Position numbers and translations under genes: made by a program. The notes beneath the pieces are model-generated. The model saw only the letters and a program-made list of their open reading frames with translations, made no database searches and was not told where the DNA came from. A DNA stretch of 64,000 nucleotides from Clostridia bacterium (GTDB lineage: Bacteria > Bacillota > Clostridia > Oscillospirales > CAG-272): NCBI GenBank assembly GCA_017466375.1, contig JAFTUH010000035.1, forward strand, positions 5,555 through 69,554, given 5' to 3'. Positions 1-36,269 of the stretch are shown here, in pieces (the stretch's first letter is position 1; each line of letters opens with the position of its first letter).

Positions 1-2143
1 CTTCGATGTTGCTGATATCTTTCGCCTGTGCATTGCCGGAGAGGACTTTGACAGTCACGTTTCCGTTTGCGGCGATTTCGGGGACACGGACGAGGAAGTT
101 TTCGCCGTCATAGTAGTGGTAGAGGATCTCGCTGTCAAGGAGGAAGCGGACGTCAGCGTAATTCTCCGCAAGGGAGGAGACGCCAGCCACCTCGGGCGAG
201 ACGGAAACGATCGCATCCGTTCCGACAGCATCCGTGCCGTTGTCGATCCGAATCGCAGATTCCGTAGCGAAAGAGGTATCGCCGCCGCCGAAAACATCTT
301 CATAGTACGCATCAATCATGCCGTCCAGCGGAGCGGTGAAATCGGCATCCGTCGAGCTGTGCAGCGTGCAGTGCACTTTGATGTATCTGCCCGTTGCCTC
401 GAAATCGTACAGATAGGTGTACATACCGTCGCGCAGAAGCTTGAAGGACTCCACCTCTGTGTAGGTTTCGTTATCGTCGCTCGTCCAGATTGTGAGGTTG
501 TTCGAGTTCAGTCGGCATACCGTGTCGCTGTCCTTGAGGACGATCACGTTGACTGTTTTAGCTTCCTTCAGATCGCGAACGATACTGTTGTTGTTCTCGT
601 CGAACGTGAATTCGGGCTGATCGGTCGGTTTGGCAACTCCCTTGTACGTGGCAGTATCCTTGCGCACGACGAGAACGTCCTCTTGCGGATTGAGACCGGG
701 TACGAACACGTCAATCGACTTGGAGGTACCGAGGGAGGGAGCCACAGCCGTAAGCGTGATCTTTTTACCGCTTGCTGCAGGCTGGGTCACCTTGCCCGTT
801 GCGGGATCAATTACGGCGGGATCGGAGGAAGACCATTCAATGTCAACAGGGGAAGTGAAGTGCTTGTTGGCAAAAGAGGTGACGAGATTCATGTCATATC
901 TGACAAGCGTCTGCTCGTTGCGCATCTTGCGGATCGTTTCAAACGAGATAGAATCCACAATGCTCTCGCCGTACTCCTTGCCGACGGAGATGCAGGTGAC
1001 GTCGATATCGAAATTGTCCTCTGCGCTCTTGGCAATTTCGGTGCTTCGAAGGAGATTGAATACGATGTTGTTTTCTCCGATCGTATCATGTGCGGTCATT
1101 TCCGCGTTCTCAAATACAGCAACCTGTTCGCCGTCGATATAGAGGATAATATCGCCGTCCGTAGTCCACTTCGTTTCAATGTGGAAGGTATCGCCCTCGT
1201 ATTTGTTCAGAATATACGTGCGGTCGCGGTCGGCGTCACGCAGGGAAAAGACGAGACCGATATCGGTGTTGACAATCGCCATGGTGACGTACGTGGTGCC
1301 TTTGTCACCGGCAGCGGAGATGTACCAGTTGAAGCCGGAAACGATGTACGGATAGAAATCGTTATCGACGCCGAGGCGGTACTCCGGCATGGATTTCGCA
1401 CAGAAGAAAAATCCGAACACTGTATCAGCCGTGCGGTCGCCGAGCGGGGCGTACGTGTCACCCGCATAGGTGAGACGGGAGTACGGTGCGAGCGGATTAT
1501 TTCCGTTCGGATCATAGCGGTCAAAGAAATTATAGCCGCCGGTGATGGTTGTAATGTTCTGGTTCGGCGTAGCCTTGGACTCGGGGTGAACGATGCGCAT
1601 ACCGCCGCGTCGGATGCCCGAGTGATTGTATACTTTGCTAGGATTGTCTGCAATGAACCATTCCTTGGAGGAGAGCACGACCGTGCCTTTCCAGACCGTG
1701 CCGTCTACCGTGATTTCGGCGGGAATCTCCGTTCCGTAATCGTTTACGGTGACACCGATTACGGAGAGATCAATGCCGTATTCCGTAGCCTTTTTGTTGG
1801 TAGCGCTTTTGATTTCTGCATTGCTTTTGGTGATCTCCGTGCCGTTCAGTTTAATCGTGACGGATTCTTTGTTCGGCGTGCGCGTAGTAAGATACAGGGT
1901 AGTCATATTCCAACGCGCACCGAGAAGCACCTCACCGGTGAGAATTGTATGGACAGCCCAGCCTTCTTCGGTGAGCTTGCCGTTAACGCTGATCTTCGTA
2001 TCGCTGTAGGATGCGTAGACCGTTTTGCCTGCAGAGGCTTCGAGTGCTGTGTCATCTGCCTGTACGGGCAGTGCGGGGACTGCACCGAGAAGCAAGACGA
2101 GCGCAAGCGCCGCTGATGTGATCTTTTTCCAGAATGCGTTCAT
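1..2143 (-). CDS. BNR/Asp-box sialidase-like multidomain surface protein, paralog P1 (N-terminal 714 codons only; gene continues past window start)
   Basis: Hand translation of the minus strand from the ATG at 2143-2141 (GGAG RBS upstream) stays open to position 1: MNAFWKKITSAALALVLLLGAVPALPVQADD... It is absent from the ORF track, presumably because there is no stop codon inside the window. It is collinear with P2. In the stretches I aligned by eye (e.g. 90-180 vs 4290-4375, 340-560 vs 4525-4745) roughly nine of ten bases match. Confidence 0.9.
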   Translation of the reverse strand, partial: MNAFWKKITSAALALVLLLGAVPALPVQADDTALEASAGKTVYASYSDTKISVNGKLTEEGWAVHTILTGEVLLGARWNMTTLYLTTRTPNKESVTIKLNGTEITKSNAEIKSATNKKATEYGIDLSVIGVTVNDYGTEIPAEITVDGTVWKGTVVLSSKEWFIADNPSKVYNHSGIRRGGMRIVHPESKATPNQNITTITGGYNFFDRYDPNGNNPLAPYSRLTYAGDTYAPLGDRTADTVFGFFFCAKSMPEYRLGVDNDFYPYIVSGFNWYISAAGDKGTTYVTMAIVNTDIGLVFSLRDADRDRTYILNKYEGDTFHIETKWTTDGDIILYIDGEQVAVFENAEMTAHDTIGENNIVFNLLRSTEIAKSAEDNFDIDVTCISVGKEYGESIVDSISFETIRKMRNEQTLVRYDMNLVTSFANKHFTSPVDIEWSSSDPAVIDPATGKVTQPAASGKKITLTAVAPSLGTSKSIDVFVPGLNPQEDVLVVRKDTATYKGVAKPTDQPEFTFDENNNSIVRDLKEAKTVNVIVLKDSDTVCRLNSNNLTIWTSDDNETYTEVESFKLLRDGMYTYLYDFEATGRYIKVHCTLHSSTDADFTAPLDGMIDAYYEDVFGGGDTSFATESAIRIDNGTDAVGTDAIVSVSPEVAGVSSLAENYADVRFLLDSEILYHYYDGENFLVRVPEIAANGNVTVKVLSGNAQAKDISNIE

Positions 2144-2184
2144 GTGATTTCTCCTTGAGAATGTTTTTTGTGGGACATAGATGC

Positions 2185-2214
2185 ATTATAGCAAATTGTT
2201 GCATGTATTGTCAA
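2185..2214 (-). promoter_or_regulatory. P1 promoter, sigma70-type with extended -10
   Basis: The minus strand reads TTGACA-atacatgcaacaatttgc-TATAAT (18-nt spacer, TGc immediately before the -10). It lies ~40 nt upstream of the ATG. Confidence 0.7.
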
Positions 2215-2302
2215 GCAAAAAATGAGTGAATTTTGTTAAAAAACAACGAAAATTTGTTGAATCGTAAAAACTCGATATTGTCCTGTAAAAATATGATATT
2301 TT

Positions 2303-2339
2303 TGCAAACAAAACACGGTCAGCCGTAAGACTGACCGTG
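2303..2339 (-). terminator. Intrinsic terminator after P2
   Basis: Stem cacggtcag/ctgaccgtg (2314-2322 / 2331-2339), followed on the minus strand by TTTTGTTTG. Confidence 0.8.
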
Positions 2340-2357
2340 CAGAGTTGTTTAGGCGGA

Positions 2358-5300
2358 TTATTTTTTGCGTTTTGCGAAGAATACGCCGGCAGCTGCAGCG
2401 CCTATGGCGATAACAGCACCTATGATGATCCAGAGCGTCGGGGATGCATTGTCCTTGTCACTGTCGGTAGAGTCGCCGGTGTTTGCGGGATCGCCTGTGT
2501 TGGCAGGATCATCCGTGTCGGGCGTAGTGGTGCCGGGAACAGATACAGATGCTACGGTAGGATATGCCGTGCCTGCATCCATGTCCTCGACAACAAACGC
2601 GTCGAGGTAATACGTAAGCGCCCCTTGGCATACGACATGCACGTAGCATACGTAAGCACCGATCTCCGCCTCTACGGGAACGGCAAAAGAATCACCGCCA
2701 TTGACGGAAAGCGTTGCGCTCGGTATATCTGCGGAAAGAGCGAGATCGAATTCAAAGTGGTTCCAGCCGTTCTTCAGTATGCCGTCCTTACTTTCACCGC
2801 GGAGAAGTGCAATCGAGTTGCCGCTGAGTGCAAAGCCGATCGGGGAAGCCTTGCCGTAATCGGGGCCGTGGGATGCTTCAAGCTCCAGCGTGAGACGCGC
2901 CTTCGTTACGTCCTCGATATACAGATCAAACGCGATCTTGCCGTCTCGTACCTCGGGGAGGGAACGGACAGCAGCGGCACCGGGGGTAAACATCAGCGAT
3001 TTCTCACCGACAGATGCCTGTGCGTTGGAAGTTTCAACCTGACCGCCCGTCGTTGCCCAGCCTTCATATTCCGTCGTGGAATTTTCAAAGGAGTCATACG
3101 CACCTTTCGTGCGGAAGAAGTAATCCATGAAATTGTAAACGTATACGAAGCGGTACTGGTTTCCTTCCGTGATCGAGTCGCTGATGGACGACACAAACAT
3201 GGTGTCACCGGCGACGTTCACATTCGGGTTCATGGCGTTGATGCAGTTGCTGTTGACCATGCCTTGATAATCCGTTCTGAGGAAGAGGTCCTGAATATCC
3301 GTGAAGTTGTACAGCCCGTCATAGGAGACAGCAACGTTCAGCGGATATCTTCTGTAGGAGCCGCCGCCGTAGACGTTGTTGCCGCCCCATATGATAAAGC
3401 TGTGACCGTCCATCTTGAAGAGTTCAGGCTGGGTGTTTGTAGCATAGATGTTGGAAAGTTCAGCCTCATCCGACCACGTTCTGCCGAAGTCGTAGGATAC
3501 GCCGTAAGCGAAGTGGAGCGTTTCTTCATATTGGCAGCGGGAGTAGAGGAACAGAACGCCGTCTTCATTTTCCATGACAGAGGGCTCACACAGACCGTGT
3601 TCACGGATATGATCCTGATCGTCACCGCCGTAGTAGCGGACAGCATCTGCGCTCATTGTCCAGGTTTTACCGTTGTCCGTCGTGTAGAGGACGGTCATTT
3701 CGCGGTGCTCATAGGGATTACCGTAGTGCTCTCTCATCAACTTGGAGTCGCGGGCTGTTGCGATGACAAAGTCCACATTCGGGCCCTCCTCGCCGTCGTA
3801 AGAGGAGACCTTAACAATATCGGAATACGTATGACGGAAGATATCGCCGGGGGTTTCATAGTTGATTTCCGCTTTGTGCCAGAGCTTACCGTTGTTGTCG
3901 GAGTATACGATGGCAGCCACATTTTCACCGTTTACCTTCTTATATCCTTGTACAAAAATGCGTCCCGTTACCTCATCGTAGCCTGAACCGTGCGGGTTTT
4001 GAAATACACCGTTGTTTATTCCCTGCATAATTCTGTGTGGAGATCTGGTGATACCGCCGTCCTGCGAGATAAAGTAGGTTGGCTGTCCATCCGCATGGAA
4101 GCCCATCAGCATACCGTTGTTCAGTTCAATGTAATATACGCCGCGGTAGCTGGAGTCCGTCTCGCGCGTGCCGTACATGACTTCATAGATCGCTTCGATG
4201 TTACCGATATCCTTCGCGTTCGCATTGCCGGAGAGAACTTTAACAGTCACGCTCTTGCCTGCCTCGATATCCGGTACGCGAACGAGGAAGTTTTCACCAT
4301 CGTAGTAGTGGTAGAGGATCTCGCCGTCAAGGAGGAAGCGGACATCAGCGTAATTCTCCGCGAGGGAGGAGACGCCTGCCACTTCAGGCGTGACCGTGGC
4401 GATAGTATCCATGATAGCGGTATCTGTGCCGTTGTCTATACGGATCGCAGATTCCGTAGCGAAAGCGGTATCGCCTCCGCCGAAAACCTCCTCATAGTAT
4501 GCGTTGATCATGCCGTCGAGCGGGGCGGTGAAGTCGGCGTCCGTCGAGCTGTGCAGCGTGAAGTGCACCTTGAAGTATCTGCCCGTTGCCTCAAAATCAT
4601 ACAGATATGTATACATACCGTCGCGCAGAAGCTTGAAGGATTTCACCTCGGTGTATGTTTCGTTATCGTCGCTCGTCCAGATCGTAAGGTTGTTCGAGTT
4701 CAGGCGGCAGACGGTATCGCTGTCCTTGAGGACGATCACATTCACCGCTTTCGATTCCTTCAGATCGCGGACGATACTGTTGTTGGTCTCATCTAATGTG
4801 AATTCGGCAACATCCAGCGCGGACGCCTTTCCTTTGTAGGCAGCGGTGTCTTTTCGCACGACGAGGATGTCCCCCTGCGGTGCGAGACCGGGAACGAACA
4901 CGTCAATCGATTTGGACGTGCCGAGGGAGGGAGCTGTTGCCGTGAGCGTGACGAGCTTCCCGCTTGCCGCAGGCTGGGTCACCTTACCCGTTGCGGGATC
5001 AATTACAGAAGGATCGGAGGATGCCCATTCGATTGCAACGGGAGTGGTGAAATGTTCGTTTGCAAAAGAGGTGACAAGATTCAGATCTCTTTTTACAAAA
5101 TCCTGCTCGTTGCCCTGATTGCGGATCGTTTCAAACGAGACGGAATCCACGATGCTCTCGCCATAGTATTTACCGAAGGAGAGACCGGTGACATTGATAT
5201 CGAAGGTATCCTCTTCACTCTTTGCCGGTTCCACGCTGCGCAGGAGGGTGAACAAAATGTAATTTGTGAAGATTGAGCTGTTTGCGGACATTTCCGCATC

Positions 5301-6350
5301 CTCGAAAACAGCGACCTGCGCACCGTCGATGTAGAGAATCAAATCACCTTCCGTTGTCCACTGCGTTTCGATGTAGAAGGTGTCGCCTTCGTATTTGTTC
5401 AGAATATACGTGCGGTCGCGGTCAGCATCGCGCACAACAAAAACAAGCCCGATATCCGTGTTGACGATCGCCATGGTGACGTACGTGGTACCTTTGTCAC
5501 CGGCGGCGGAGATGTACCAGTTGAATCCCGCCATCAGGTGCGGATAGAAATCGTTGTCTGTGCCGAGTCGGTACTCGGGCATAGAGTTGGCACAGAAGAA
5601 GAAGCCGAACACCGTATCAGCCGTGCGATCTGCGAGCGAAGCGTACGTATCACCGGAGCAGATGAGTCGAGAGAAGGGTGCAGGAGGATTCTCTCCGTTC
5701 GGATCGTAGCGGTCGAAGAAATTATAGCCGCCCGTAATGGTTTTGATGTTCTGGTTATCTGTAGCCTTGGATTCGGGATGAATAATGCGCAACCCGCCGC
5801 GCTGAACGGCAGCGGTGGGATACGCTTTGCTTGGATTACTGGTAGCAAACAACTCTTTGGAGGAGAGGATGACCGTGCCTTCCCAGACCGTTTCGCCTAC
5901 CGTAATTTCAGCAGGGATCTCAACACCGTAATCGTTCACAGTGACACCGATCGCGGAGAACGGTACGGAAAGTTCCGTGCTGGATTTGCCTGTAGCACGA
6001 ACGGTATAGCTTTTGATTTTCGCATTCGATTCGGTGAGCTGCGTGCCGTTCAGCGTGACGGAGATTTCCTTCTTATCTGTTGTGTATACAGCGAGATACA
6101 GATTTTCCGCGTTCCACTGTGCACCGATAAGGATATCGTCCTCAGCGTGTGTGGAAAGAGCCCAGCCGCTGTCGGTGAGCTTGCCGTTGACGGTGATTTT
6201 ATCCTTCGAAAACGATGCGAGTACGGTCGAGGAGTGAACCGATTCTTCTGGCGGAGCTTCATCTGCGCGGGCAGGTATAGCGGGCAGTGCGCCGAGAAGC
6301 AGGAATACAGCGAGTGCTGCCGATGTAAGTTTTTTCCGGATTGCGTTCAT
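2358..6350 (-). CDS. BNR/Asp-box sialidase-like multidomain surface protein, paralog P2 (1330 aa)
   Basis: Track ORF 2358..6389. I prefer the internal ATG at 6350 (MNAIRKKLTSAALAVFLLLGALPAIPARA), which has a GGAG RBS and a signal peptide. Asp boxes: SDNNGKLW, TTDNGKTW, SYDFGRTW, plus a degenerate SQDGGITR. C-terminal TM helix followed by a KRKK tail. Confidence 0.93.
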   Translation of the reverse strand: MNAIRKKLTSAALAVFLLLGALPAIPARADEAPPEESVHSSTVLASFSKDKITVNGKLTDSGWALSTHAEDDILIGAQWNAENLYLAVYTTDKKEISVTLNGTQLTESNAKIKSYTVRATGKSSTELSVPFSAIGVTVNDYGVEIPAEITVGETVWEGTVILSSKELFATSNPSKAYPTAAVQRGGLRIIHPESKATDNQNIKTITGGYNFFDRYDPNGENPPAPFSRLICSGDTYASLADRTADTVFGFFFCANSMPEYRLGTDNDFYPHLMAGFNWYISAAGDKGTTYVTMAIVNTDIGLVFVVRDADRDRTYILNKYEGDTFYIETQWTTEGDLILYIDGAQVAVFEDAEMSANSSIFTNYILFTLLRSVEPAKSEEDTFDINVTGLSFGKYYGESIVDSVSFETIRNQGNEQDFVKRDLNLVTSFANEHFTTPVAIEWASSDPSVIDPATGKVTQPAASGKLVTLTATAPSLGTSKSIDVFVPGLAPQGDILVVRKDTAAYKGKASALDVAEFTLDETNNSIVRDLKESKAVNVIVLKDSDTVCRLNSNNLTIWTSDDNETYTEVKSFKLLRDGMYTYLYDFEATGRYFKVHFTLHSSTDADFTAPLDGMINAYYEEVFGGGDTAFATESAIRIDNGTDTAIMDTIATVTPEVAGVSSLAENYADVRFLLDGEILYHYYDGENFLVRVPDIEAGKSVTVKVLSGNANAKDIGNIEAIYEVMYGTRETDSSYRGVYYIELNNGMLMGFHADGQPTYFISQDGGITRSPHRIMQGINNGVFQNPHGSGYDEVTGRIFVQGYKKVNGENVAAIVYSDNNGKLWHKAEINYETPGDIFRHTYSDIVKVSSYDGEEGPNVDFVIATARDSKLMREHYGNPYEHREMTVLYTTDNGKTWTMSADAVRYYGGDDQDHIREHGLCEPSVMENEDGVLFLYSRCQYEETLHFAYGVSYDFGRTWSDEAELSNIYATNTQPELFKMDGHSFIIWGGNNVYGGGSYRRYPLNVAVSYDGLYNFTDIQDLFLRTDYQGMVNSNCINAMNPNVNVAGDTMFVSSISDSITEGNQYRFVYVYNFMDYFFRTKGAYDSFENSTTEYEGWATTGGQVETSNAQASVGEKSLMFTPGAAAVRSLPEVRDGKIAFDLYIEDVTKARLTLELEASHGPDYGKASPIGFALSGNSIALLRGESKDGILKNGWNHFEFDLALSADIPSATLSVNGGDSFAVPVEAEIGAYVCYVHVVCQGALTYYLDAFVVEDMDAGTAYPTVASVSVPGTTTPDTDDPANTGDPANTGDSTDSDKDNASPTLWIIIGAVIAIGAAAAGVFFAKRKK
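2361..2576 (-). other. P2 low-complexity linker plus C-terminal TM anchor
   Basis: A Pro/Thr/Asp/Gly-rich linker containing DPANTG repeats is followed by SPTLWIIIGAVIAIGAAAAGVFFAKRKK. Confidence 0.75.
2475..2510 (-). repeat. 18-bp in-frame tandem repeat, 2 copies (DPANTG x2) in the P2 linker
   Basis: Hand translation of 2510->2475 gives DPANTGDPANTG. Confidence 0.9.
2577..3104 (-). other. P2 C-terminal jelly-roll (lectin/CBM-like) module
   Basis: FFRTKGAYDSFEN...EGW...SLMFTPGAAAVRSLP...GKIAFDLYIED...NGWNHFEFDL...YYLDAFVVEDMD is conserved in all seven complete paralogs. Confidence 0.45.
3105..4157 (-). other. P2 six-bladed-propeller-like BNR/sialidase-superfamily domain
   Basis: Asp boxes lie at aa 775-782, 830-837, 903-910 (nt 3660-3683, checked by hand translation) and 965-972, in the 1343-aa numbering of track ORF 2358..6389 (i.e. 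counted from 6389). Other sialidase-like motifs are CEPSVMENEDGVLFLYSR (E...E..DG.l....R) and SYRRYPLNVAVSYDG (R..l.v.vS.D.G). Confidence 0.7.
4164..4472 (-). other. P2 DUF2341-like beta-sandwich
   Basis: ADVRFLLDGEILYHYYDGENFLVRVPDIEAGKSVTVKVLSGNANA resembles the DUF2341 signature (D-x-RF...L-x-Y....vWVkvp.i......yyGn). Confidence 0.5.
4485..4877 (-). other. P2 F5/8 type C (discoidin/CBM32-like) module
   Basis: RDLKESKAVNVIVLKDSD...LTIWTSDDNETYTEV...YLYDFEATGRYFKVHF matches the discoidin-domain pattern (vDLg...v..i.l......i..S.Dg..w..v). Confidence 0.6.
4881..5096 (-). other. P2 bacterial Ig-like module
   Basis: The signature L-x-L-x-T-...-I-x-W-x-SSDPSVIDPATGKVTQP...LVTLTATA...K-x-I-D-V-F-V is typical of small Ig-like modules in Firmicute glycosidases. 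Confidence 0.55.
5160..5807 (-). other. P2 ConA/LamG-like jelly-roll module
   Basis: A segment of about 215 aa (GGYNFFDRY...ADTVFGFFFCANSMP...MAIVNTDIGLVF...GDLILYIDG...FDINVTGLSFGKYYG) with the alternating beta-strand character typical of lectin/glucanase folds. No HMM search was run. Confidence 0.45.
5859..6227 (-). other. P2 N-terminal beta-sandwich, CBM9/DOMON-like
   Basis: The pattern ...VNGKLTDSGWAL...GAQWNAENLYLAV...VTLNG... recurs in all paralogs. It resembles the family-9 carbohydrate-binding signature (W...W-D/N-x-x-x-LY-L/V). Assigned by eye only. Confidence 0.45.
6264..6350 (-). other. P2 signal peptide (representative domain map)
   Basis: A basic N-terminus, a hydrophobic core LTSAALAVFLLLGALPAIPA and an ARA/DE cleavage-like site. 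Confidence 0.7.
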
Positions 6351-6387
6351 GAGAATTCTCCTCAATTTGATATTAAAATACATATTC

Positions 6388-6417
6388 ATTATAACAAAGC
6401 AAAATATCCATTGTCAA
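6388..6417 (-). promoter_or_regulatory. P2 promoter, sigma70-type with extended -10
   Basis: The minus strand reads TTGACA-atggatattttgctttgt-TATAAT (18-nt spacer, TGt before the -10). Confidence 0.7.
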
Positions 6418-6473
6418 GAAAGTATACGGACGGATTTAATTGCTCTTGTCCTTGGGTTTGATTTGAAAAGCGC

Positions 6474-6506
6474 AGAAAAACACGGCCAGCCGTCAGGCTG
6501 ACCGTG
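6474..6506 (-). terminator. Intrinsic terminator after P3
   Basis: Stem cacggccag/ctgaccgtg (one non-Watson-Crick position) followed by TTTTT on the minus strand. It is homologous to the P2 terminator. Confidence 0.75.
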
Positions 6507-6525
6507 CAGAAGAGTATTATGCGGA

Positions 6526-9500
6526 TTATTTTTTGCGTTTTGCGAAGAATACGCCGGCAGCTGCAGCGCCTATGGCGATAACAGCACCTATGATGATCCA
6601 AAGCGTCGGGGATGCATTGTCTTTGTCACCCTGTGTAGTGTCGCCGGTGTTTGCGGGATCGCCGGTGTTTGCGGGATCGCCGGTATTTGCGGGATCGCCG
6701 GTATTTGCAGGATCATCCGTGTCGGGCGTAGTGGTGCCGGGAACAGAAACAGATGCAACGGTAGGATATGCCGTGCCTGCATCCATGTCTTCGACAACGA
6801 ATGTATCGAGGTAATACGTAAGCTCACCCTTGCATACGACATGCATGTAGCATACGTAAGCGCCTACCTCTGCGTTCACGGGAACGGATACTGCTTCGCC
6901 GCCGTTGATCGCAAGCGTTGCGTTCGGCGTCTCATCCGTGAGGGCGAGATCGAACTCAAAATGGTTCCAGCCGTTCTTGACAGCGTTCATGATGACATCG
7001 CCGCCGAGCAGTGTGAGCTGATCCTCATAGAGGGAGAATCCGATCGGGGAAGCCTTGCCGTAATCGGGACCGTGGGAGGCTTCAAGCTCCAGCGTGAGAC
7101 GCGCCTTCGTCACGTCCTCGATATACAGATCAAACGCGATCTTGCCGTCTCGTACCTCGGGGAGGGAGCGGACAGCAGCGGCACCGGGGGTGAACATCAG
7201 CGATTTCTCGCCGACAGATGCCTGGGCGTCGGATGTTTCAACCTGACCGCCCGTAGTGCCCCAGCCTTCATACTCCGTCGTGGAGTTTTCAAAGGAGTCA
7301 TATGCACCCTTCGTACGGAAGAAGAAGTCGGTGAAATCGCTGACCCAGATGTTGCGGAAGCGCTCGCCGCCCATCGTGTCGTCACTGATGACGGTCACCT
7401 GCATCTCGCCGTCATCGTAGAGGAAAACATTCGGGTTCATGGCGTTGATACAGGTGCCGTTGACCATACCCTGATAGTCTGTTCTGAGGTAGATATCCTG
7501 AATAGCCGTGAACGTCAGGAGATTGTCATAGGAGATAGCAACGTTCATAGGATATCTTCTGTAGGAGCCGCCGCCGTATACGTTGTTGCCGCCCCAGAGA
7601 ATGAATTCGTTACCGTCTGCCTTGAAAAGTGTAGGCTGCGTGTTGGAGGTGTAAATGTTGGAAAGCTGTGCTTCCTCCGTCCACGTCTTGCCGAAATCGT
7701 ACGAGAAGGCATATCCGAAGTGGAGAACCTCTTCGTACTGCAGGCGGGAGTAGGCAACCAGTACGCCGTCAGCCGTTTCCATGCATACCTGCTCGCAGAG
7801 ACCGTGCTCCCATTTGTGGATGGTGTCGTCTCCGCCGAAGAAGCGAACGGCGTTCGTGCTCGAGTTCCATGTTTTTCCGCCGTCGGTCGAGTAAAGGGAG
7901 AAAAGCTCGGAGTGCTCGTACTGATGTCCGTAGTACTCCTTCATTTCTTCAGAAGGACGTCTTGTGATAAGAACGAAGTCCACGTTCGGCCCTTCGCCGT
8001 CGTAGGCAGAAACCTTTATGATATCGTCGTAGGACTGAAGAATACGGTCAACTTCATATTTAAAGTTGATTTTTGCTTCCGTCCAGAGCTTGCCGTTGTT
8101 ATCGGAGTACATGATCTTAAACATACTCTTGCCGTTTTCGGGATGCACTCCCTGGACGAAAATACGTCCTGTTACGTCGTCATAACCTGTTCCCATAGGC
8201 TGGGTAAGAACATCGTACGTGCCGCCTGCCGGGAAGAGGTTTGTTCTGGATCTGCCGTTATTCTCGACAAAGTAGTAGGCAAATCCTGTGTTCTCCAAGG
8301 CTTGACCCTGTGTGTTGAACCGCAGACCGTTGTTCAGCCTAACGCTACCGCCGGGGTGGTAGTCAGAGGAGGTTTCGCGCGTACCGTACATAACCTCGTA
8401 AAGAGGCTCGATGTTTGAAATGTCTTTGGCATCCGCATTGCCCGAGAGAACGGTAACCGTTACACTTTCGCCTGCCGGAATATCGGGAATACGCACGAGG
8501 AATTTCTCGCCGTTGAACGCATGATAGAGGATCTCGTCGCCGAGCAGGAAGCGGATGTCGGCGTAGTTTGCATCCAGACACTTTGCACCGGTTTCCTCGA
8601 TGGTGACAGGGGTGAGTACATCCATCATGTCGTCGGTATTCTCGTTTTTGACAGAGAATGCGGAGGTGGTTGCAAATGCACTGCCGCCGTCACCGAAGAC
8701 GTCTTCGTAGTATGCCTCGATCATGCCGGGGATCGGTGCCGTGAAGGTAGTATCCGTTTTGGTATGGAGCGTAAAGTGAACCTTGATATAGCGTCCGGTT
8801 GCTTCAAAATCGTAGAGATATGTATACTGACCGTCTCTCAGAAGCTTGAACGGCTTTACCTGTGTGTAGGTCTTGTTGTCGTCACTTACCCAGATCGTAA
8901 GATTGCTCTCGTTCAGCCGGCAGGAGTCGTCACTGTCTTTCAGTGCGATGACGTTTACCGTTTTCGATTCCTTCAGATCACGAACGACACTGTTGTTCGC
9001 TTCGTCAAAGGTGTAGTAAGGCGCATCCGGAACGGTGGCGCGGCCTTCACTTGTGTTGATATCACCGCGCACGACCAGTACGTCTGACTGCGGGTTAGAT
9101 CCAAGCACATATACATCAATGGATGTGGTCGATCCTATAGACGGTGCCGTTGCCGTGAGCGTCACGGACTTGCCGTCCGTTTCGGGGCGCGTTACCTTTC
9201 CGGTCGCAGGATCAATCACGTCAGGATCAGAGGACTTCCATTCGATCGCAACAGGCGTTGTAAAATGCTTGTTTGCGAAAGTGGTGACGAGATTCAGATT
9301 GTAGTTGACGGTCAGCGGGTTGCCGCGGTTGTTGCTGATGGTATCGAACGTGAGGGAGTCGAGCAGCGTATCGCCGTGGCTCTTACCGACGCAGACTCCT
9401 GTGATATCGATATCAAAGTTGTCCTTCTCGCCTTTTGCGCTCTCTTTGTTGCGCAGAAGGTGGAAACGGACCATGTTTTCGCCGAGATCCCAACGGGACA

Positions 9501-10569
9501 TTTCGGCATCCTCAAAGAACGCGACCTGCTTACCGTCGATGGAAAGGATAAGGTCGCCATCCTTTGTCCATACCGTCTCAACGTAGAACGTGTCCCCGAG
9601 GAACTTGTTCAGCGGATACGTGCGGTCGCGGTCTGCATCGCGGAGGACAAAGACGAGACCGAGCTCCGTATTGATGATGGCCATGGTAACGTAGGGAAGC
9701 TCCTCCCATTCGAGAGATTTTCCCGTTATATACCAGTTCATTCCGCAGGTAGTGATGTAGGGGTAATAGTCGTTATCCGTACCGAGAGGATACACGGGCA
9801 TGGAGTTGGCACAGAACGTGAATCCGAGCACAGTATCTGCGGTGCGGTCACAGATCGCTTCAAACCCGCTTCCCTGGAAATACAGAGTGGAAGAAACGGA
9901 GGGCGGATTTTCGCCGGTTGCACTGTAGTGGTCGTAAAATTTGTATCCGCCGGTCGTTGTTGCAACGCCCTGGTTGTCGGTAGGCTTGCATATCTCATGA
10001 ACGAACTGACCGGCCTGGGTACGGACACCTGCATAACCGGCAGAGGCGCTCGGATTGTTCGCTGCAAACCATTCGGTAGAGGTGAGAAGAACCGAGCCTG
10101 TCCATACGGTGTCTCCGATCGAGATTTCAGCGGGGATCTCTACGCCGTAATCCTTTACGGTGACACCGATCGCGGAGAACGGTACGGAGATTTCCGTACT
10201 GTATTTGCCGGTAGCGCGAACGGTGTAATTTTTCATTTTCGCATTCGACTTGGTGAGCTCCGTTCCGTTCACAGTGACAGAAACACTCTTTTTCTCCGGC
10301 AGGTGTATACCAAGATACAGATTTTCTGTATCCCACTGCGCGCCGATAAGGGCACCGTCATCCGCACGTGTGGCAAGCGCCCAGCCGCCGTCGTTGAATC
10401 TGCCGTTTACGGCAATTTCAGCATTCGCAAAGGACGCGCGCACGGTAGACATGCCAGCCGATTCGGCTGCCTGTGCTTCATCTGCACGGACGGGTACAGC
10501 GGGCAGTGCGCCGAGAAGCAGAAACGCGGCAAGCGCTGCCGATGTGATTTTTTTCCAAATTACGTTCAT
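6526..10569 (-). CDS. BNR/Asp-box sialidase-like multidomain surface protein, paralog P3 (1347 aa)
   Basis: Track ORF. GGAG RBS and signal peptide MNVIWKKITSAALAAFLLLGALPAVPVRA. Asp boxes SDNNGKLW, STDGGKTW, SYDFGKTW. The C-terminal tail is identical to that of P2. Confidence 0.93.
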   Translation of the reverse strand: MNVIWKKITSAALAAFLLLGALPAVPVRADEAQAAESAGMSTVRASFANAEIAVNGRFNDGGWALATRADDGALIGAQWDTENLYLGIHLPEKKSVSVTVNGTELTKSNAKMKNYTVRATGKYSTEISVPFSAIGVTVKDYGVEIPAEISIGDTVWTGSVLLTSTEWFAANNPSASAGYAGVRTQAGQFVHEICKPTDNQGVATTTGGYKFYDHYSATGENPPSVSSTLYFQGSGFEAICDRTADTVLGFTFCANSMPVYPLGTDNDYYPYITTCGMNWYITGKSLEWEELPYVTMAIINTELGLVFVLRDADRDRTYPLNKFLGDTFYVETVWTKDGDLILSIDGKQVAFFEDAEMSRWDLGENMVRFHLLRNKESAKGEKDNFDIDITGVCVGKSHGDTLLDSLTFDTISNNRGNPLTVNYNLNLVTTFANKHFTTPVAIEWKSSDPDVIDPATGKVTRPETDGKSVTLTATAPSIGSTTSIDVYVLGSNPQSDVLVVRGDINTSEGRATVPDAPYYTFDEANNSVVRDLKESKTVNVIALKDSDDSCRLNESNLTIWVSDDNKTYTQVKPFKLLRDGQYTYLYDFEATGRYIKVHFTLHTKTDTTFTAPIPGMIEAYYEDVFGDGGSAFATTSAFSVKNENTDDMMDVLTPVTIEETGAKCLDANYADIRFLLGDEILYHAFNGEKFLVRIPDIPAGESVTVTVLSGNADAKDISNIEPLYEVMYGTRETSSDYHPGGSVRLNNGLRFNTQGQALENTGFAYYFVENNGRSRTNLFPAGGTYDVLTQPMGTGYDDVTGRIFVQGVHPENGKSMFKIMYSDNNGKLWTEAKINFKYEVDRILQSYDDIIKVSAYDGEGPNVDFVLITRRPSEEMKEYYGHQYEHSELFSLYSTDGGKTWNSSTNAVRFFGGDDTIHKWEHGLCEQVCMETADGVLVAYSRLQYEEVLHFGYAFSYDFGKTWTEEAQLSNIYTSNTQPTLFKADGNEFILWGGNNVYGGGSYRRYPMNVAISYDNLLTFTAIQDIYLRTDYQGMVNGTCINAMNPNVFLYDDGEMQVTVISDDTMGGERFRNIWVSDFTDFFFRTKGAYDSFENSTTEYEGWGTTGGQVETSDAQASVGEKSLMFTPGAAAVRSLPEVRDGKIAFDLYIEDVTKARLTLELEASHGPDYGKASPIGFSLYEDQLTLLGGDVIMNAVKNGWNHFEFDLALTDETPNATLAINGGEAVSVPVNAEVGAYVCYMHVVCKGELTYYLDTFVVEDMDAGTAYPTVASVSVPGTTTPDTDDPANTGDPANTGDPANTGDPANTGDTTQGDKDNASPTLWIIIGAVIAIGAAAAGVFFAKRKK
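6643..6714 (-). repeat. 18-bp in-frame tandem repeat, 4 copies (DPANTG x4) in the P3 linker
   Basis: The plus strand reads gccggtgtttgcgggatc repeated with minor variants. The protein reads DDPANTGDPANTGDPANTGDPANTGDTTQG. Confidence 0.9.
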
Positions 10570-10607
10570 GTGATTTCTCCTTAGAATTTCTTACATGATG
10601 TATTGCC

Positions 10608-10637
10608 ATTATAACAAATTGTTGCGTACAATGTCAA
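10608..10637 (-). promoter_or_regulatory. P3 promoter, sigma70-type with extended -10
   Basis: The minus strand reads TTGACA-ttgtacgcaacaatttgt-TATAAT. The spacer is nearly identical to that of the P1 promoter. Confidence 0.7.
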
Positions 10638-10813
10638 GAGGAAGTTGTGCAGAATTTGTGAAAAATTGCGTTATTATCACAACACGAGAAAAAGAGAGTA
10701 TTGACCTTGAAAATTGTGTTTTTTTGGTCTGCAGTTTTCCTCTGCAACAAGGACTACAGCACAATTATAGCATGATTTGCTGACAAGAGTCAATGCGCAT
10801 TTGTCGGGCAAAT

Positions 10814-10849
10814 TTATAAAAAGGACTGCCGTTGAAAACGGCAGTCCTT
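10814..10849 (-). terminator. Intrinsic terminator after P4
   Basis: A 13-bp stem aaggactgccgtt/aacggcagtcctt with a 3-nt loop and a T-run on the minus strand. Confidence 0.85.
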
Positions 10850-10854
10850 AGAGA

Positions 10855-13800
10855 TTATGCGGGTTTCTTTTTGGATTTTACAGCGATGAAGATAACTGCT
10901 CCAATGATTACGGCAGCACCTGCACCGATGCCGATCCAGAGTGCCGGAGAAGACTCACTCGAACCGGGCGTTACGCCGGGATCCACAGGCGTGGGATCAG
11001 CGTATTCGGCCCAGGAGAGGATGACGGGTGCGTCGGTCGGAACGTTGACGTACAAGCCGTCCTCGCCTTCGAATACGGAAAGAAGCTTTCCGAAATCATC
11101 CGTCTTGCGGTCATCATCTGTCATGAGAACCAGTGCGCGGAACGCGTGCGTACTTGCCGCTGTTCCTTCGGGATAAGCGAATTTGACAGTCATGCCTGCA
11201 GGCGGAATGTCATAAGTCGTAGCGTCCGCCCACGTGTCACCGCCGTCCTTGGAGATGATCGGGGAGAGAGAGTAAATTGCCGTGTTTTCAGCAAGATAGG
11301 TCTCGTCGGCACCTGCAAGCACGAAGCCCTGCATAGCGGCAGTGAATGCGGCGGTGTCATCGTAATTCTCGGAAAGCGCATCCGTAAGCTCGGTGAACGC
11401 GGAGGCTTCTGCGGAGACGATAATATCGGGCACGAACGAGTTGTCTTCGTCAATGATGAGGAACTCGTCGAGATAGTATGTAAGTTCGCCGAGACCGCGT
11501 ACGTGAACGAATGCAGCATAGTCGCCGATTTCGCTGTTTACGGGAACGGTGATGTTCTCGCCGCCGTTTACGGAAAGGGAAGCGGCAGGCTTTTCGTTCA
11601 GCATATCCAGCGAAAATTCAAAGTGGTTCCAGCCGTCCTTCAGATTGAGGGCAACAGCGGAGTCAGCACCGAGGAAGGTTACCTTATTGCCGTTCAGCTG
11701 GAAGGCAATCGGTGCGGCAAGACCGTACTCAAATCCGTAGGAGGACTCAAACTCAAACTCAAACTTCGCCTTGTCCACGTCTTCAATGAACAGATCGAAC
11801 GAAACCGTGCCGTTTTGGATGTACGGGATTGAACGGTTGGCAGAAGCACCGGGGGTAATGCACATGGAGTATTTGCCATCAGATGCCTGTGCATCGGAGT
11901 GAGCGATCTCACCGCCCGTCGTTGACCAGCCTTCCCATTCGGGATCTGTTTGCTCAAAGGTGTCGTATGCGCCTCTGGTTTTGAAGAAATAGTCGAGGAA
12001 GTTGTTGATGCGAAGTGTGTTCATCTTGCCGTTTGTGGCGGAGTTGGTGAGGAGGATGCAGTCGCCGGACTTGGATATCTGCGTGTTTGTGTTGTCGACA
12101 GCGGTTGCGGTCGTCATACCCTGAAGTGCCGTCTTGGAGAAGAGATCCAGCACGCCTTCAAACGTCATCAGATTGTCGTAGGAAACACCAATCGACAGGG
12201 GATAACGGCGGAACGAACCCTGACCGAACATATTGTTGCCGCCCCACATCATGAACTGATAATCGCCGAAGTTGAACAGATACGGCTGCGTATTGACGGA
12301 GTAAACATCGGAGAGCTCAGCTTCCTTAGTCCACGTCTTACCGTAATCGTAGGAGAAAGAGCGGCAGAGCGTGTATACGTTGTCATACTGGCAGCGTGAG
12401 TAAACGACGACGGTGCCGTTTTTTGCCTCCAGAATGTGTGCCTCGCAGACGCCGTGCTCACGGGTATGCGCGTGCTCGCCCTGTGCTTCGCCGTCGTAGA
12501 AGGCGATATCATCCGGACTGAGCGTCCATGTTTTACCGTTATCCGTCGTGTATGCAACGCGTGCAACTGCGTGACCGTAGCGGTTGTTGTAATGCTCGGA
12601 TACTGCGGGGGATTCAGTGTTCAGAACGTGTACGTAGTCTACGTTCGGACCGTCGCCGTCATTACAGGAAAGTCGGGCGATCTGCGCGTAGGAGAGCAGA
12701 TACGTGGATTCGTACTCACCGGTCTGCGTAAGCGGAGCATGCTTCCAGCTTCTGCCCATGTCATCAGAGTACATATAGTGCGTCATCAGACCGATATTAT
12801 TGCCACCGCCGTCACGGATTCTGGTGTAGCCGGTTACAATGAGACGGTCTGCAGCTTCGTCATAGATCGCGCCTTGCGGTACGCAGAGATAAGGTGCAGA
12901 TCCGACTGCGGTCAGGTAACCGCTCCAGCTTCTGCCCTGGTCCTCGGAGAAGCAGAACTTAAAGGGGGTCTCGTAGTCTGATTGTGCGGCAAAGGCGAGA
13001 ATCCGTCCGTCCGGAAGTGTGGTCGTGTAACGTGCGGTGAGAGACGGATCCGTCTCAACCGTACCGTAAACGATCTCATATACGTTCGTCTTGTTGGAGA
13101 TATCCTTTGCGTTCGCGTTGCCGGAGAGAATTTTCAGAGTAACGGAAGAATTCTTCGGAATCTTCGTAACACGGACATAGAAGTTCGTGCCGTCGAAATA
13201 GTGATACAGCATCTCGCCGTCGAGATAGAAGCGAACGTCTGCGCTGTCAGATGCAGCACACTGGACGCCGGCATCGGCAGGGGAGATCTTTTCAATGGAA
13301 TCAAACTTCGCTGTATCGGTGTTGTTTGTCAGCGTGTAGCTGCTCTCGGTTGCGAATGCCGAACCGTTATCACCGAATACATTCTCATAGTACGCATCGA
13401 TCATCTCGTCGAGCGGACCGATGAAGTCGCAGTCTCTCTCGGTGTTGGTTGTGCAGTGCACCTTGATGTATCGACCGGTTGCCTCGAAATCGTACAGATA
13501 GGTATACATTCCGTCACGCAGGAGTTTGAACGAAGGAACCTGCGTATAGGTTTTGTTGTCATCGCTCGTCCAGATGGTGAGCATCGTTTCGTTCAGCTTA
13601 TTGATCTCGTCGGAGTCCTTCAGCGCGATTACGTTAACCGTCTTCGACTCTTTCAGATCACGGATGATACTGTTGTTCGAGGTGTCGAGCGTGAACTCGT
13701 AAACATCCTGAACGGTACCCTTGCCTTCGTATGCTGTTACGTCGCTGATAACAGCGAGAACATCGCTTTCGGGAGCAAGTCCCTTAACGTACAGATCGAA

Positions 13801-15276
13801 GGACTTCTTCAGACCGGTTTCGGAATCCGTTGCGGTCAGCGTGACAAGCTTGCCGTTATTCTGCGGCTGCGTGATTTTACCGGTAGCCGGATCGATTACA
13901 GCCGGATCGGAGCTCTCCCACGTAAGAGAAAGCGACTTGTTGAACTGGGGATGCTTCCACTCGGTCGGCAGAGACAGATTGGATATGATGGAGTGCGAAT
14001 CGGGATTGGCGTTTTTATCCCCTTGGATCGTCCAGAAGCCGAGCGCATCGATCAGGTTCTCACCGTAGTATTTACCCATAGCGAGATTGGTGACGTCGAT
14101 ATCGAAATCGTCCTCGGAGGAGTCGGCGATTTCAGCACTGCGTGCGATACCCATGGTCATGATGTTCCGCGCCTCCATGCGGCGGTGCGTGCTGTCCGCG
14201 TTTTCGATCACCTTGAGAACTTCGCCGTCCACATAAAGAATTACGTCGCCGTCCGTCGTCCAGTTGATACCGATACGGAATTTCTCGCCGAGCTGCTTGT
14301 TCAGCGGGCAGGAATACGTAGCGCCGTTCATTTTCAAAGCAGAGGTGTTCAAAATAAACGAAAGACCGGAATCCGTATTCACGATTGCCATCGTGATGAA
14401 GTTGTTGTAGTAGCTGGCGTTATCTCTCAGATACCAGAAGAAACCGCAGTTGGGATATTCGCCCCAGAAATCATTCTCCGTGCCGAGCTCGTATACAGGC
14501 ATGGATCTTGCGAGAAAGTCAAATTCCACGAGCGTGTCCGCAGTGCGGTCGCCGATCGGCGCATATACATCTCCACTGTAAGTGAGAGATGTGCGGATCG
14601 AGATGGCAGGGCGAGCGGCATCTGCATTGTAGCGGTCAAAGAAATTGTAACCGCTGCCGACTGTGTTTGCTCCCTGATCGGGCGTGGGTTGCGACCACTC
14701 GTGCACAAGGCGCATACCGGATTTGTAAAGACTGCCGTGCGGAGAAAGTCGGTTGGCGTTGTCAGCAGCAAACCAATCGATGGAGGTAAGATGCGTAACA
14801 CCTTCCCAGACTGTGCTTCCGACTGCGATTTTTGTCGGGATTTTAACGCTGTAATCCTCTACCGTGACGCCAAGTGTTTCGAGAGAAACATAGTACTCGG
14901 TGTTCAGTTTGTTGGAGGAGGTTTTGGATTGAGAGTTATCACTCGTCAGTTCGACCCCGTTCAGTGTGACGGAAATCTTTTCTTTTTTCTCGTTTCTGAC
15001 AGCAAAGTAGAGATTTTCAAAATCCCACTGTGCACCGGCAGTAACATTTTCGGTGATCGGTGCGATCATGTTCCAACCGGATTCGGTCGTCAGACCGTTG
15101 AGCTTCATTTCTTCGTCCGTGTAAGCCGCGCGGATTACATTCTCTTCGGGCAGTACAGAGGGCATCGAAATGTCGGCTGTTGACTCGGCAGCATTAACTG
15201 CGAAAGCAGGTACGGTACCAACAGCCAGGATGAGTGAGAGCGTGAAAGCAAACGCTCTTTTGATGAAGGAAGTCAT
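10855..15276 (-). CDS. BNR/Asp-box sialidase-like multidomain surface protein, paralog P4 (1473 aa, long form)
   Basis: Track ORF 10855..15357. I prefer the ATG at 15276 (MTSFIKRAFAFTLSLILAVGTVPAFA) with a GGAG RBS. Asp boxes SEDQGRSW, SDDMGRSW, TTDNGKTW, SYDYGKTW. Carries an extra C-terminal module and a TM/KSKKK tail. Confidence 0.93.
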   Translation of the reverse strand: MTSFIKRAFAFTLSLILAVGTVPAFAVNAAESTADISMPSVLPEENVIRAAYTDEEMKLNGLTTESGWNMIAPITENVTAGAQWDFENLYFAVRNEKKEKISVTLNGVELTSDNSQSKTSSNKLNTEYYVSLETLGVTVEDYSVKIPTKIAVGSTVWEGVTHLTSIDWFAADNANRLSPHGSLYKSGMRLVHEWSQPTPDQGANTVGSGYNFFDRYNADAARPAISIRTSLTYSGDVYAPIGDRTADTLVEFDFLARSMPVYELGTENDFWGEYPNCGFFWYLRDNASYYNNFITMAIVNTDSGLSFILNTSALKMNGATYSCPLNKQLGEKFRIGINWTTDGDVILYVDGEVLKVIENADSTHRRMEARNIMTMGIARSAEIADSSEDDFDIDVTNLAMGKYYGENLIDALGFWTIQGDKNANPDSHSIISNLSLPTEWKHPQFNKSLSLTWESSDPAVIDPATGKITQPQNNGKLVTLTATDSETGLKKSFDLYVKGLAPESDVLAVISDVTAYEGKGTVQDVYEFTLDTSNNSIIRDLKESKTVNVIALKDSDEINKLNETMLTIWTSDDNKTYTQVPSFKLLRDGMYTYLYDFEATGRYIKVHCTTNTERDCDFIGPLDEMIDAYYENVFGDNGSAFATESSYTLTNNTDTAKFDSIEKISPADAGVQCAASDSADVRFYLDGEMLYHYFDGTNFYVRVTKIPKNSSVTLKILSGNANAKDISNKTNVYEIVYGTVETDPSLTARYTTTLPDGRILAFAAQSDYETPFKFCFSEDQGRSWSGYLTAVGSAPYLCVPQGAIYDEAADRLIVTGYTRIRDGGGNNIGLMTHYMYSDDMGRSWKHAPLTQTGEYESTYLLSYAQIARLSCNDGDGPNVDYVHVLNTESPAVSEHYNNRYGHAVARVAYTTDNGKTWTLSPDDIAFYDGEAQGEHAHTREHGVCEAHILEAKNGTVVVYSRCQYDNVYTLCRSFSYDYGKTWTKEAELSDVYSVNTQPYLFNFGDYQFMMWGGNNMFGQGSFRRYPLSIGVSYDNLMTFEGVLDLFSKTALQGMTTATAVDNTNTQISKSGDCILLTNSATNGKMNTLRINNFLDYFFKTRGAYDTFEQTDPEWEGWSTTGGEIAHSDAQASDGKYSMCITPGASANRSIPYIQNGTVSFDLFIEDVDKAKFEFEFESSYGFEYGLAAPIAFQLNGNKVTFLGADSAVALNLKDGWNHFEFSLDMLNEKPAASLSVNGGENITVPVNSEIGDYAAFVHVRGLGELTYYLDEFLIIDEDNSFVPDIIVSAEASAFTELTDALSENYDDTAAFTAAMQGFVLAGADETYLAENTAIYSLSPIISKDGGDTWADATTYDIPPAGMTVKFAYPEGTAASTHAFRALVLMTDDDRKTDDFGKLLSVFEGEDGLYVNVPTDAPVILSWAEYADPTPVDPGVTPGSSESSPALWIGIGAGAAVIIGAVIFIAVKSKKKPA

Positions 15277-15327
15277 ACAATTCTCCTTAGTGAAATTGTG
15301 CGGACGAGAGTATCCGTCACTTCGTTT

Positions 15328-15357
15328 ATTATAGCAAATTGACGATTGTTTTGTCAA
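15328..15357 (-). promoter_or_regulatory. P4 promoter, sigma70-type with extended -10
   Basis: The minus strand reads TTGACA-aaacaatcgtcaatttgc-TATAAT. Confidence 0.7.
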
Positions 15358-24221: not shown

Positions 24222-24258
24222 ATAAAAAGAGCACGGTCACCCCTTCGAGCGACCGTGC
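24222..24258 (-). terminator. Intrinsic terminator after P7
   Basis: Stem gcacggtc/gaccgtgc followed by TCTTTTTAT on the minus strand. Confidence 0.75.
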
Positions 24259-36254: not shown

Positions 36255-36269
36255 AACACACGTCCTTTC

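Follow-up and report, generated by a model that had tools for sequence, protein, structure and literature searches.

A tandem array of multimodular sialidase-like proteins in a Clostridia genome, with a propeller probably nearer to GH181 than to GH33 in its active-site pattern

A 64,000-nucleotide stretch of the genome of an uncultured gut bacterium of the Clostridia (Eubacteriales; assembly GCA_017466375.1, contig JAFTUH010000035.1, positions 5,555 to 69,554; hereafter the window) carries, at positions 1-33213 on the minus strand, eight tandem paralogues of 1,330-1,500 amino acids, the second of which, P2, is the subject of this study. From the N- to the C-terminus, P2 is composed of a signal peptide, a CBM9-like module (M1), a ConA/pentraxin-like module (M2), an immunoglobulin-like (Ig) aBig_2 module (M3), a NedA-type F5/8C module (M4), a DUF2341 module (M5), a six-bladed Asp-box β-propeller (M6), a β-sandwich (M7), a linker, a transmembrane helix and the sequence KRKK. 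The propeller is homologous to those of the sialidases of glycoside hydrolase (GH) families 33 and 181. Because neither the Tyr nucleophile nor the acid/base loop of GH33 is present in it, the label 'GH33', with whose characterised enzymes an earlier note on this DNA had compared it, is probably wrong, and the aligned active-site pattern appears closer to GH181. With somewhat better than even confidence, we read P2 from its sequence as a secreted, surface-anchored and probably inverting sialidase-like enzyme, one of eight diverged paralogues that would feed a local catabolism of N-acetylneuraminic acid (Neu5Ac). Sialidase propellers of clan GH-E with lectin appendages are known; the uncharacterised branch of the sialidase superfamily described here is new.

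The propeller of P2 is a sialidase-superfamily propeller

The P2 propeller matches Pfam BNR_2 with 42.7 bits (cut-off 31.4), and Pfam, the AlphaFold2 model and Foldseek agree on a six-bladed propeller with SxDxGxTW Asp boxes, a trait of GH33. All significant matches of the propeller profiles in the PDB were sialidases. A seven-paralogue profile matched the GH181 sialidase Amuc_1547 (E 2e-8) and the GH33 enzymes NanI, NanJ and NanA (about 1e-7), and a 26-sequence profile matched GH33 chains at 1e-22 to 1e-16 (best 2e-22) and GH181 at 7e-15. By sequence, the family does not cluster with GH181 rather than GH33, but is about equidistant from both. In structure, the best match is Amuc_1547 of Akkermansia muciniphila (8AXI, 8AXS, 8AXT, 8HLS and 9EOB), to which the propeller and the M7 sandwich align together over about 630 columns (Foldseek E 2e-19, TM-score 0.60-0.62 on the target) at a sequence identity of about 14%. 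BT_1020, the trypanosomal trans-sialidases and NanI followed it in the Foldseek ranking.

Residues at the predicted active site

Amuc_1547 is an inverting sialidase with specificity for the sialyl-T-antigen; its described residues are Glu218, Arg234, Arg305, the pair His349-Gln350, the general acid/base Asp345, and Gln367, which replaces one Arg of the triad (PMC10067855, PMC12018670). The GH181 numbering used in our mapping is that of these two papers. For GH33, the canonical member P0026 (motifs FRIP, AGD, NAR, NRNNLTL and AYSDIVKIS) served as the hhalign reference. The P2 propeller aligned with it at a probability of 98.9%. The two are colinear between the FRIP site and Arg 3, and the alignment ended before the Tyr motif. 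Residue numbers of P2 count from the ATG at 6389, and all coordinates were re-translated and checked.

Glu218, Arg234 and Arg305 of GH181 have their counterparts in E935, R951 and R1014 of P2, which are invariant or nearly so among 123 family propellers (Table 1). R951 and R1014, together with R749, would make up the Arg triad that binds the carboxylate of sialic acid. Where GH33 has its Tyr nucleophile and GH181 has Gln350, P2 has N1054. Among the 123 propellers this position is Asn in 97 (79%), Gln in 13 (11%) and Tyr in two, with an amide in 110 (89%) altogether; in the Tyr-Glu pair of GH33, the Glu is kept as E935, while the Tyr position is mostly Asn. In the AlphaFold2 model, N1054 stands second in strand A of blade 6; in GH33 the Tyr has the same register. 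The acid/base Asp loop that follows the FRIP strand in GH33 ('GRVNNAGDFG') is deleted, by 7 residues in the hidden Markov model (HMM) alignment and by 10 in hhalign. The P2 residue adjoining this deletion is the non-acidic Q769, in an unconserved column with Asp in 19 and Glu in 17 of the 123 propellers. As a further difference from GH33, the family has its own invariant insertion, 'YDGxxGPNVD'. Conservation extends to E930 (120 of 123), D865 (116) and D873 (116), and Q953, N985 and W1001 are also near-invariant.

The correspondence with GH181 is partial. The family mostly has Asn instead of Gln at the amide position and lacks His349, the preceding residue being Thr, Val or Met in the window paralogues and never His. 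It has no conserved residue at the position of Asp345, with which C1049 of P2 aligns. Moreover, P2 appears to keep the FRIP-type Arg, R749, where GH181 has Gln367 instead; the alignment with GH181 stops short of Q367. This Arg, 8-10 residues before a conserved Gly, is found in six of the seven window paralogues and in about two-thirds of the family members.

Two other residues were considered as equivalents of the nucleophile and set aside. Q1042, in the loop before N1054, was given up because the alignment with GH181 and the register of the strand pointed to N1054; this position is Gln in five paralogues, Tyr in the gene at 24265-28695 and Trp in the gene at 28825-33213. Y855 lies in a motif, 'TYSDIVKVS', that resembles 'AYSDIVKIS' of GH33, and was rejected as a relocated nucleophile when hhalign paired it with an extra, non-nucleophile Tyr of P0026. 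The loss of the FRIP-type Arg in P3, together with the variation at position 1042, may mark differences in specificity or activity among the paralogues.

Module architecture of P2

Each module boundary is supported by Pfam, by profile-to-PDB matches or by AlphaFold/Foldseek evidence. The two halves of P2 were modelled with AlphaFold2 from alignments of 22 and 26 sequences, with pLDDT values of 87.7 and 87.5 and pTM values of 0.72 and 0.88, respectively, the second values being those of the half with the propeller and M7. The earlier note had divided P2 into nine segments by pattern recognition. All nine calls hold within a few residues, and the strand blocks in the models coincide with the borders that it gave. 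M1, drawn there at residues 55-177, extends here over 54-183 and keeps its CBM9-like character.

The CBM9-like assignment of M1 is weak but consistent, as judged from profile matches. The top PDB match of a 35-sequence profile is the CBM9 of Thermotoga maritima Xyn10A (1i82, E 1e-3), running through the motif DG..E.W...LWD..LY. Pfam CBM9_1 appears below its cut-off in three of the 35 copies (best E 0.004) and is still the family that most copies touch. For M2, a 24-sequence profile matches the pentraxin 3flp with E 5e-6, individual copies give weak Pfam matches to TS_C, Laminin_G_3 and GH16, and Foldseek matches the N-terminal model of P2 to the Hc domain of the botulinum and tetanus toxins (BoNT/TeNT). 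All of these are ConA-like lectin jelly rolls or include one, and with that placement of its matches M2 stands, by a significant match, in the ConA-like lectin/glucanase superfamily. A deeper profile was needed for this result, as a shallow profile of M2 from the seven paralogues found nothing significant in the PDB. In the Foldseek search with the whole N-terminal half, the BoNT Hc domain dominates at low TM-scores, which bears on the ConA-like fold and does not separate the single domains. Pfam gave no matches on the giant relatives described below that would have named M1 or M2.

M3 matches aBig_2 (PF20578) at residues 424-491 with 30.9 bits, above the gathering threshold (GA) of 27. For M4, F5_F8_type_C_2 (PF22633, GA 27.8) gives 26.7 bits with P2 and 31.3 bits with the adjoining P3. 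M5 of P2 reaches 15.1 bits with DUF2341 (PF10102), under the gathering threshold of 23.4 bits; the homologous module passes it in P4 (23.6 bits) and in P0017, P0022 and P0024 (24.4-32.5 bits), and we assign M5 of P2 to DUF2341 by its homology with these relatives. The module sits directly ahead of the propeller throughout the family, as the earlier note had pointed out for P2.

M7 is modelled with pLDDT above 90 and packs on the propeller. It has no sequence match in Pfam or the PDB, where the seven-paralogue profile was also null, and no sequence relative outside the family. The segments of P2 with marked hydrophobicity on the Kyte-Doolittle scale are two, at residues ~20-42 and 1319-1339. 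C-terminal sorting signals were considered for the tail, but the NCBIfam models GVDTG-CTERM and GG_III-CTERM scored far below their cut-offs, and the tail is taken as a plain transmembrane anchor. The longer paralogues have an extra module of about 130-150 amino acids between M7 and this tail, with an Asp-box-like 'SKDGGDTW' and no Pfam match.

The P2 gene is a single unbroken open reading frame (ORF) of 1343 codons at 2358-6389. Its start codon, as predicted from the promoter, is not the ATG at 6389 but that at 6350 (MNAIRKK..., residue 14), because the promoter at 6417-6388 puts the transcription start downstream of the first ATG. This agrees with the start proposed in the earlier note.

Table 1. 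Coordinates of the array genes and of the features of P2 in the window (P2 residue numbers from ATG 6389)
Feature	Position	Strand	Evidence or remark
Array genes	partial at left edge; 2358-6389 (P2); 6526-10569 (P3); 10855-15357; 15455-19792; 20066-24061; 24265-28695; 28825-33213	-	ORF map
P2 promoter	6388..6417	-	TTGACA-18-TATAAT, extended -10 TG, 12/12 sigma-70 consensus
Signal peptide, residues 14-42	6264..6350	-	MNAIRKK...PARA: basic n-region, hydrophobic core, ARA/DE site; hydropathy peak 20-42
M1, CBM9-like β-sandwich, residues 54-183	5841..6230	-	AlphaFold2 strands, profile against PDB, weak Pfam CBM9_1
M2, ConA/LamG/pentraxin-like jelly roll, residues 194-410	5160..5810	-	Profile against PDB, weak Pfam, Foldseek
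M3, atrophied bacterial Ig (aBig_2), residues 424-503	4881..5120	-	Pfam PF20578
M4, F5/8 type C, NedA-like galactose-binding, residues 505-635	4485..4877	-	Pfam PF22633
M5, DUF2341-like β-sandwich, residues 640-742	4164..4472	-	Pfam PF10102
M6, six-bladed sialidase-superfamily β-propeller, residues 745-1095	3105..4157	-	Pfam BNR_2, profiles, Foldseek
Asp boxes	4044-4067, 3879-3902, 3660-3683, 3474-3497, 3303-3326	-	Three canonical, two degenerate
R749, putative GH33 FRIP Arg equivalent	4143..4145	-	Ungapped hhalign extension, three residues past the aligned block, to P0026 'FRIPAMV'
E935, predicted catalytic Glu equivalent (GH181 E218; GH33 Tyr-paired Glu)	3585..3587	-	HMM and hhalign; 122/123
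R951, predicted second triad Arg (GH181 R234; GH33 Arg 2)	3537..3539	-	HMM and hhalign; 123/123
R1014, predicted third triad Arg (GH181 R305; GH33 Arg 3)	3348..3350	-	HMM and hhalign; 123/123
N1054, predicted position of GH33 Tyr nucleophile and GH181 Gln350	3228..3230	-	HMM 'T-N-P' against 'H349-Q350-S'
M7, β-sandwich packed on propeller, residues 1096-1271	2577..3104	-	AlphaFold2 pLDDT >90 over the stretch; Foldseek
Linker, Pro/Thr/Asp-rich with PANTGD repeats, residues 1272-1318	2436..2576	-	Sequence
Transmembrane helix 1319-1339, then KRKK	2361..2435	-	Hydropathy peak; tail conserved in all paralogues
P2 intrinsic terminator	2313..2340	-	G+C-rich 12-bp hairpin then T run, 3' of stop
Extra module of longer paralogues	10963-11418	-	Equivalents in genes 15455-19792, 24265-28695, 28825-33213

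A modular family in Clostridia

A word-indexed search of 5.8 billion proteins returned 16 relatives of P2, all from metagenome-assembled genomes (MAGs) of Clostridia and all unnamed or generically named. An exhaustive HMMER search with a profile of 1,174 positions against 1.84 billion representative proteins gave 808 matches with E < 1e-3, of which 168 had E < 1e-30, and 170 retrieved proteins were annotated with HMMs built for the seven modules. The family follows the grammar [M1-M2-M3]n-M4-M5-M6-M7, in which the M4-M5-M6-M7 block is constant and the M1-M2-M3 triplet is a cassette in 0 to 7 or more copies; a side branch has the order M4-M5-M6-M4. The exact order of P2 is found in 22 of the representative proteins, and about 45 giants of 2,000-5,204 amino acids repeat the triplet 2 to 7 or more times. 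The module order that the earlier note had singled out was not met in the solved structures, Pfam architectures or papers searched, and it is not unique to P2. Judging from these sequences, the architecture is the grammar of a real, extracellular and unannotated family, not a one-off, and the family may constitute a new CAZy family. It is not described in the literature that we searched, which covered GH181, inverting sialidases, DUF2341, Faecousia and mucinolysomes.

Among the giants, P0029, P0037 and P0040 (3,889-5,204 amino acids) carry the triplet up to 7 or more times together with one catalytic core, and the Faecousia locus L004 encodes a 3,917-residue version at 860-12613. The C-terminal anchors also vary. 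The window group has the transmembrane helix and Lys-rich tail, P0019, P0048 and P0053 have SLH repeats, and P0033 has a type I dockerin, which hints that some members may belong to cellulosome-like ('mucinolysome') complexes. Other relatives, among them P0031, P0062 and P0063, have sortase-like signals (xPxTGD; SPKTG/PNTGD/PPTGD) followed by a transmembrane segment and a basic tail.

The tandem array and its neighbourhood

The seven complete paralogues are 41-65% identical to one another. Each of the eight is preceded by a near-perfect sigma-70 promoter of its own, five of which match the consensus 12/12 (at 2214, 6417, 10637, 15357 and 28695), and hairpin terminators were found 3' of six of the seven complete genes; the paralogues are predicted on this basis to be separate transcription units. 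Four of the terminator hairpins (2313-2340, 6480-6507, 24231-24258 and 28788-28817) share the core GCACGGTCAG...CTGACCGTGC, which was evidently duplicated along with the genes, to judge from its sequence. Mean identity among the paralogues is highest in M4 (62%) and M5 (59%) and lowest in the propeller (44%), M1 (44%) and M2 (42%), a distribution that would fit a diversification of specificity. The DNA of P2 and that of P3 share about 90% identity through most of the M7 and tail region (2358-3000 versus 6526-7170), with an 80-nt identical run, against 57-85%, mostly 60-75%, in the rest of the genes. This suggests gene conversion at their 3' ends.

Very long antisense ORFs of up to 1,250 codons lie over the paralogues (116-2116+, 2337-3986+, 12982-15183+, 24523-28275+ and others). 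The sense genes use TTA 0-2 times, CTA not at all and TCA 2-8 times per ~1,400 codons. The antisense frames are, in all appearance, shadows rather than genes, because the sense genes avoid the very codons that would read as antisense stops.

Directly upstream of the array, at 33344-36368 on the minus strand, lie genes for a GntR/FCD regulator, a NanA-like lyase of the DHDPS family and an AGE-family protein, and the lyase and epimerase genes overlap by 35 nt. The best NCBIfam models are N-acetylneuraminate lyase for the DHDPS gene and N-acyl-D-glucosamine 2-epimerase for the AGE gene. No sialic acid kinase was seen near the array. In a related Eubacteriales MAG (GCA_045577175.1), the AGE gene and the array are syntenic with those of the window, with a different copy number. 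Elsewhere in the window, a GH20 β-hexosaminidase-like gene (44234-45928, minus strand) and a GH43 gene (58407-59405, plus strand) stand among the housekeeping genes mutS, mutL, clpX, tig and thrC; by their sequence families, both would fit a glycan-foraging organism.

Comparison with characterised systems

The GH181 enzyme resembles P2 in its propeller and sandwich, but it has neither the M1-M5 modules nor the transmembrane tail. The propeller of P2 is likewise homologous to those of the GH33 sialidases NanI, NanJ and NanH of Clostridium perfringens, NanA and NanB of Streptococcus pneumoniae, NedA of Micromonospora viridifaciens and the P. acnes enzyme (7LBU). Like P2, GH33 enzymes use accessory lectin modules, and NedA has an F5/8C-type galactose-binding module of the same Pfam family as M4. 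However, none of the characterised GH33 enzymes found here has DUF2341, or a CBM9-like/ConA-like/Ig triplet, ahead of the propeller. The earlier note's remark that the architecture cannot be matched to a characterised GH33 enzyme was borne out in the solved structures, Pfam architectures and literature searched.

The trans-sialidase and sialidase of Trypanosoma cruzi and Trypanosoma rangeli (1MS8, 2FHR) have, as P2 does, a C-terminal lectin-like β-sandwich after the propeller. Foldseek aligned them with P2 over about 650-680 columns (E ~1e-14), and copies of M2 have weak matches to Pfam TS_C. Unlike P2, these eukaryotic enzymes are retaining, use a Tyr nucleophile and have no N-terminal train of modules. 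BT_1020 of Bacteroides thetaiotaomicron (5MQR) offers another sialidase-like propeller within a large multi-domain glycosidase and was the sixth Foldseek match (E 3e-16); it differs from P2 in its set of domains and its Gram-negative periplasmic context, and the TM-score is low (0.17-0.25).

Proposed function and alternative explanations

In the function that we favour, P2 would be exported by its signal peptide and held at the cell surface by the C-terminal transmembrane helix, while the lectin-like modules would keep it in place, and at a suitable spacing, on sialoglycans of the host or of mucin. By analogy with Gln350 of GH181, the amide residue at 1054 and Glu935 may position a water molecule for an inverting, single-displacement cleavage of terminal sialic acid. 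The eight paralogues could cover different linkages or modified sialic acids, and the products of the adjacent genes, the NanA-like lyase and the N-acylglucosamine 2-epimerase, would break down the released Neu5Ac, with the GntR/FCD protein as their regulator.

Several observations weigh against this proposal. The active-site geometry is drawn from alignments and secondary structure, and the alignment at N1054 is low in identity, its anchors being mainly R1014 and the strand register. The FRIP-type Arg is absent in P3 and in about one-third of the aligned family members, and no conserved general acid/base was identified, D345 and H349 of GH181 having no conserved counterpart in the family. In the neighbourhood, the NanA-like and AGE genes score below the NCBIfam equivalog cut-offs and no sialic acid transporter was seen near the array. 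Outside the window, nan genes were not found next to the Faecousia homologue, and L005, an MGYG-HGUT MAG labelled uncultured Lachnospiraceae, has beside its homologue only a distant DHDPS gene, 24% identical to that of the window. The family members are uncharacterised and have names that are at most generic ('exo-alpha-sialidase').

The same non-canonical site, without Tyr and acid/base loop and in some members without the first Arg, could serve another acidic keto-sugar (Kdn, Kdo, pseudaminic acid, legionaminic acid or DHA), or a reaction other than hydrolysis, for instance trans-sialylation within the molecule or the formation of an anhydro-sugar. The sialidase-like domain of BT_1020 acts on DHA, a keto-acid sugar of rhamnogalacturonan-II, and its place as sixth Foldseek match, the anhydrosialidases among the profile matches, the missing nan neighbourhood in Faecousia and the sub-threshold scores of the lyase and the epimerase all lend this explanation some weight. 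We nevertheless regard it as unlikely, given that the neighbouring genes best match Neu5Ac lyase and N-acyl-D-glucosamine 2-epimerase, which as a pair are specific to the breakdown of Neu5Ac, that genuine Neu5Ac sialidases are the nearest of the solved structures, and that the source organisms are gut bacteria, in whose habitat sialoglycans are abundant.

It is less probable again that P2 is an ordinary retaining GH33 enzyme that recruits its nucleophile from elsewhere, either from the elongated loop between blades 5 and 6 (Y1041) or from Y855. This loop, which precedes N1054, exceeds that of GH33 by 8 residues and is poorly modelled; P2 has Y1041 there, and 23 of the 123 propellers have a Tyr in family column 1039. 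In addition, the deep profile scores GH33 structures above GH181, the NCBI pipeline names two members exo-alpha-sialidase, and the Y855 motif 'YSDIVKVS' recalls the GH33 nucleophile motif. On the other hand, neither the family nor the set of window paralogues shows a conserved Tyr across residues 1039-1042 of the loop, Y855 pairs with a Tyr that canonical GH33 has besides its nucleophile, and the predominance of an amide at the canonical position is accompanied by deletion of the acid/base loop. Slightly less likely still is a purely adhesive role, in which the proteins would be non-catalytic surface lectins, or pseudo-sialidases, that only bind host glycans. The loss of the catalytic Tyr and the acid/base loop, the five β-sandwich modules and the manifold repetition of M1-M3 in the giants would suit such a role, and the study on GH181 reported a further BNR protein, Amuc_0623, to be inactive. 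However, E935, R951, R1014, E930, D865, D873, Q953, N985 and W1001 stay near-invariant among sequences of 25-45% identity, as would be expected of a functioning active site; catalysis is possible with an amide in place of the Tyr, as GH181 demonstrates, and the genes adjoin catabolic genes for the product.

Beyond P2 as a sialidase-like enzyme, the proteins may represent a GH family that had gone unrecognised, or may branch within clan GH-E as a deep sister of GH181. It would then be a second lineage of inverting propeller sialidases, with Asn or Gln in place of Tyr and without the acid/base loop, and, with its eight-gene arrays, its giants of over 5,000 amino acids and some members joined to cellulosome-like complexes by dockerins, an overlooked major system for harvesting sialoglycans in uncultured gut Clostridia. 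We put this wider proposal forward tentatively, as a possibility that we regard as less likely than not.

Implications

Cross-feeding in the gut, and the accessibility of mucin and further glycans of the host, are controlled by the release of sialic acid, and the reference sialidases come from a handful of cultured species and are nearly all GH33. If the family is active, Tyr-less chemistry of the GH181 type would not be an Akkermansia curiosity, and an Asn variant of it would occur in abundant uncultured Clostridia. The conserved F5/8C-DUF2341-propeller-sandwich block would then provide the first functional context for DUF2341, and annotation pipelines that name such proteins 'exo-alpha-sialidase', or nothing, would need a dedicated model. 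The eight diverged propellers of the array would, in the same event, form a natural panel for mapping specificity.

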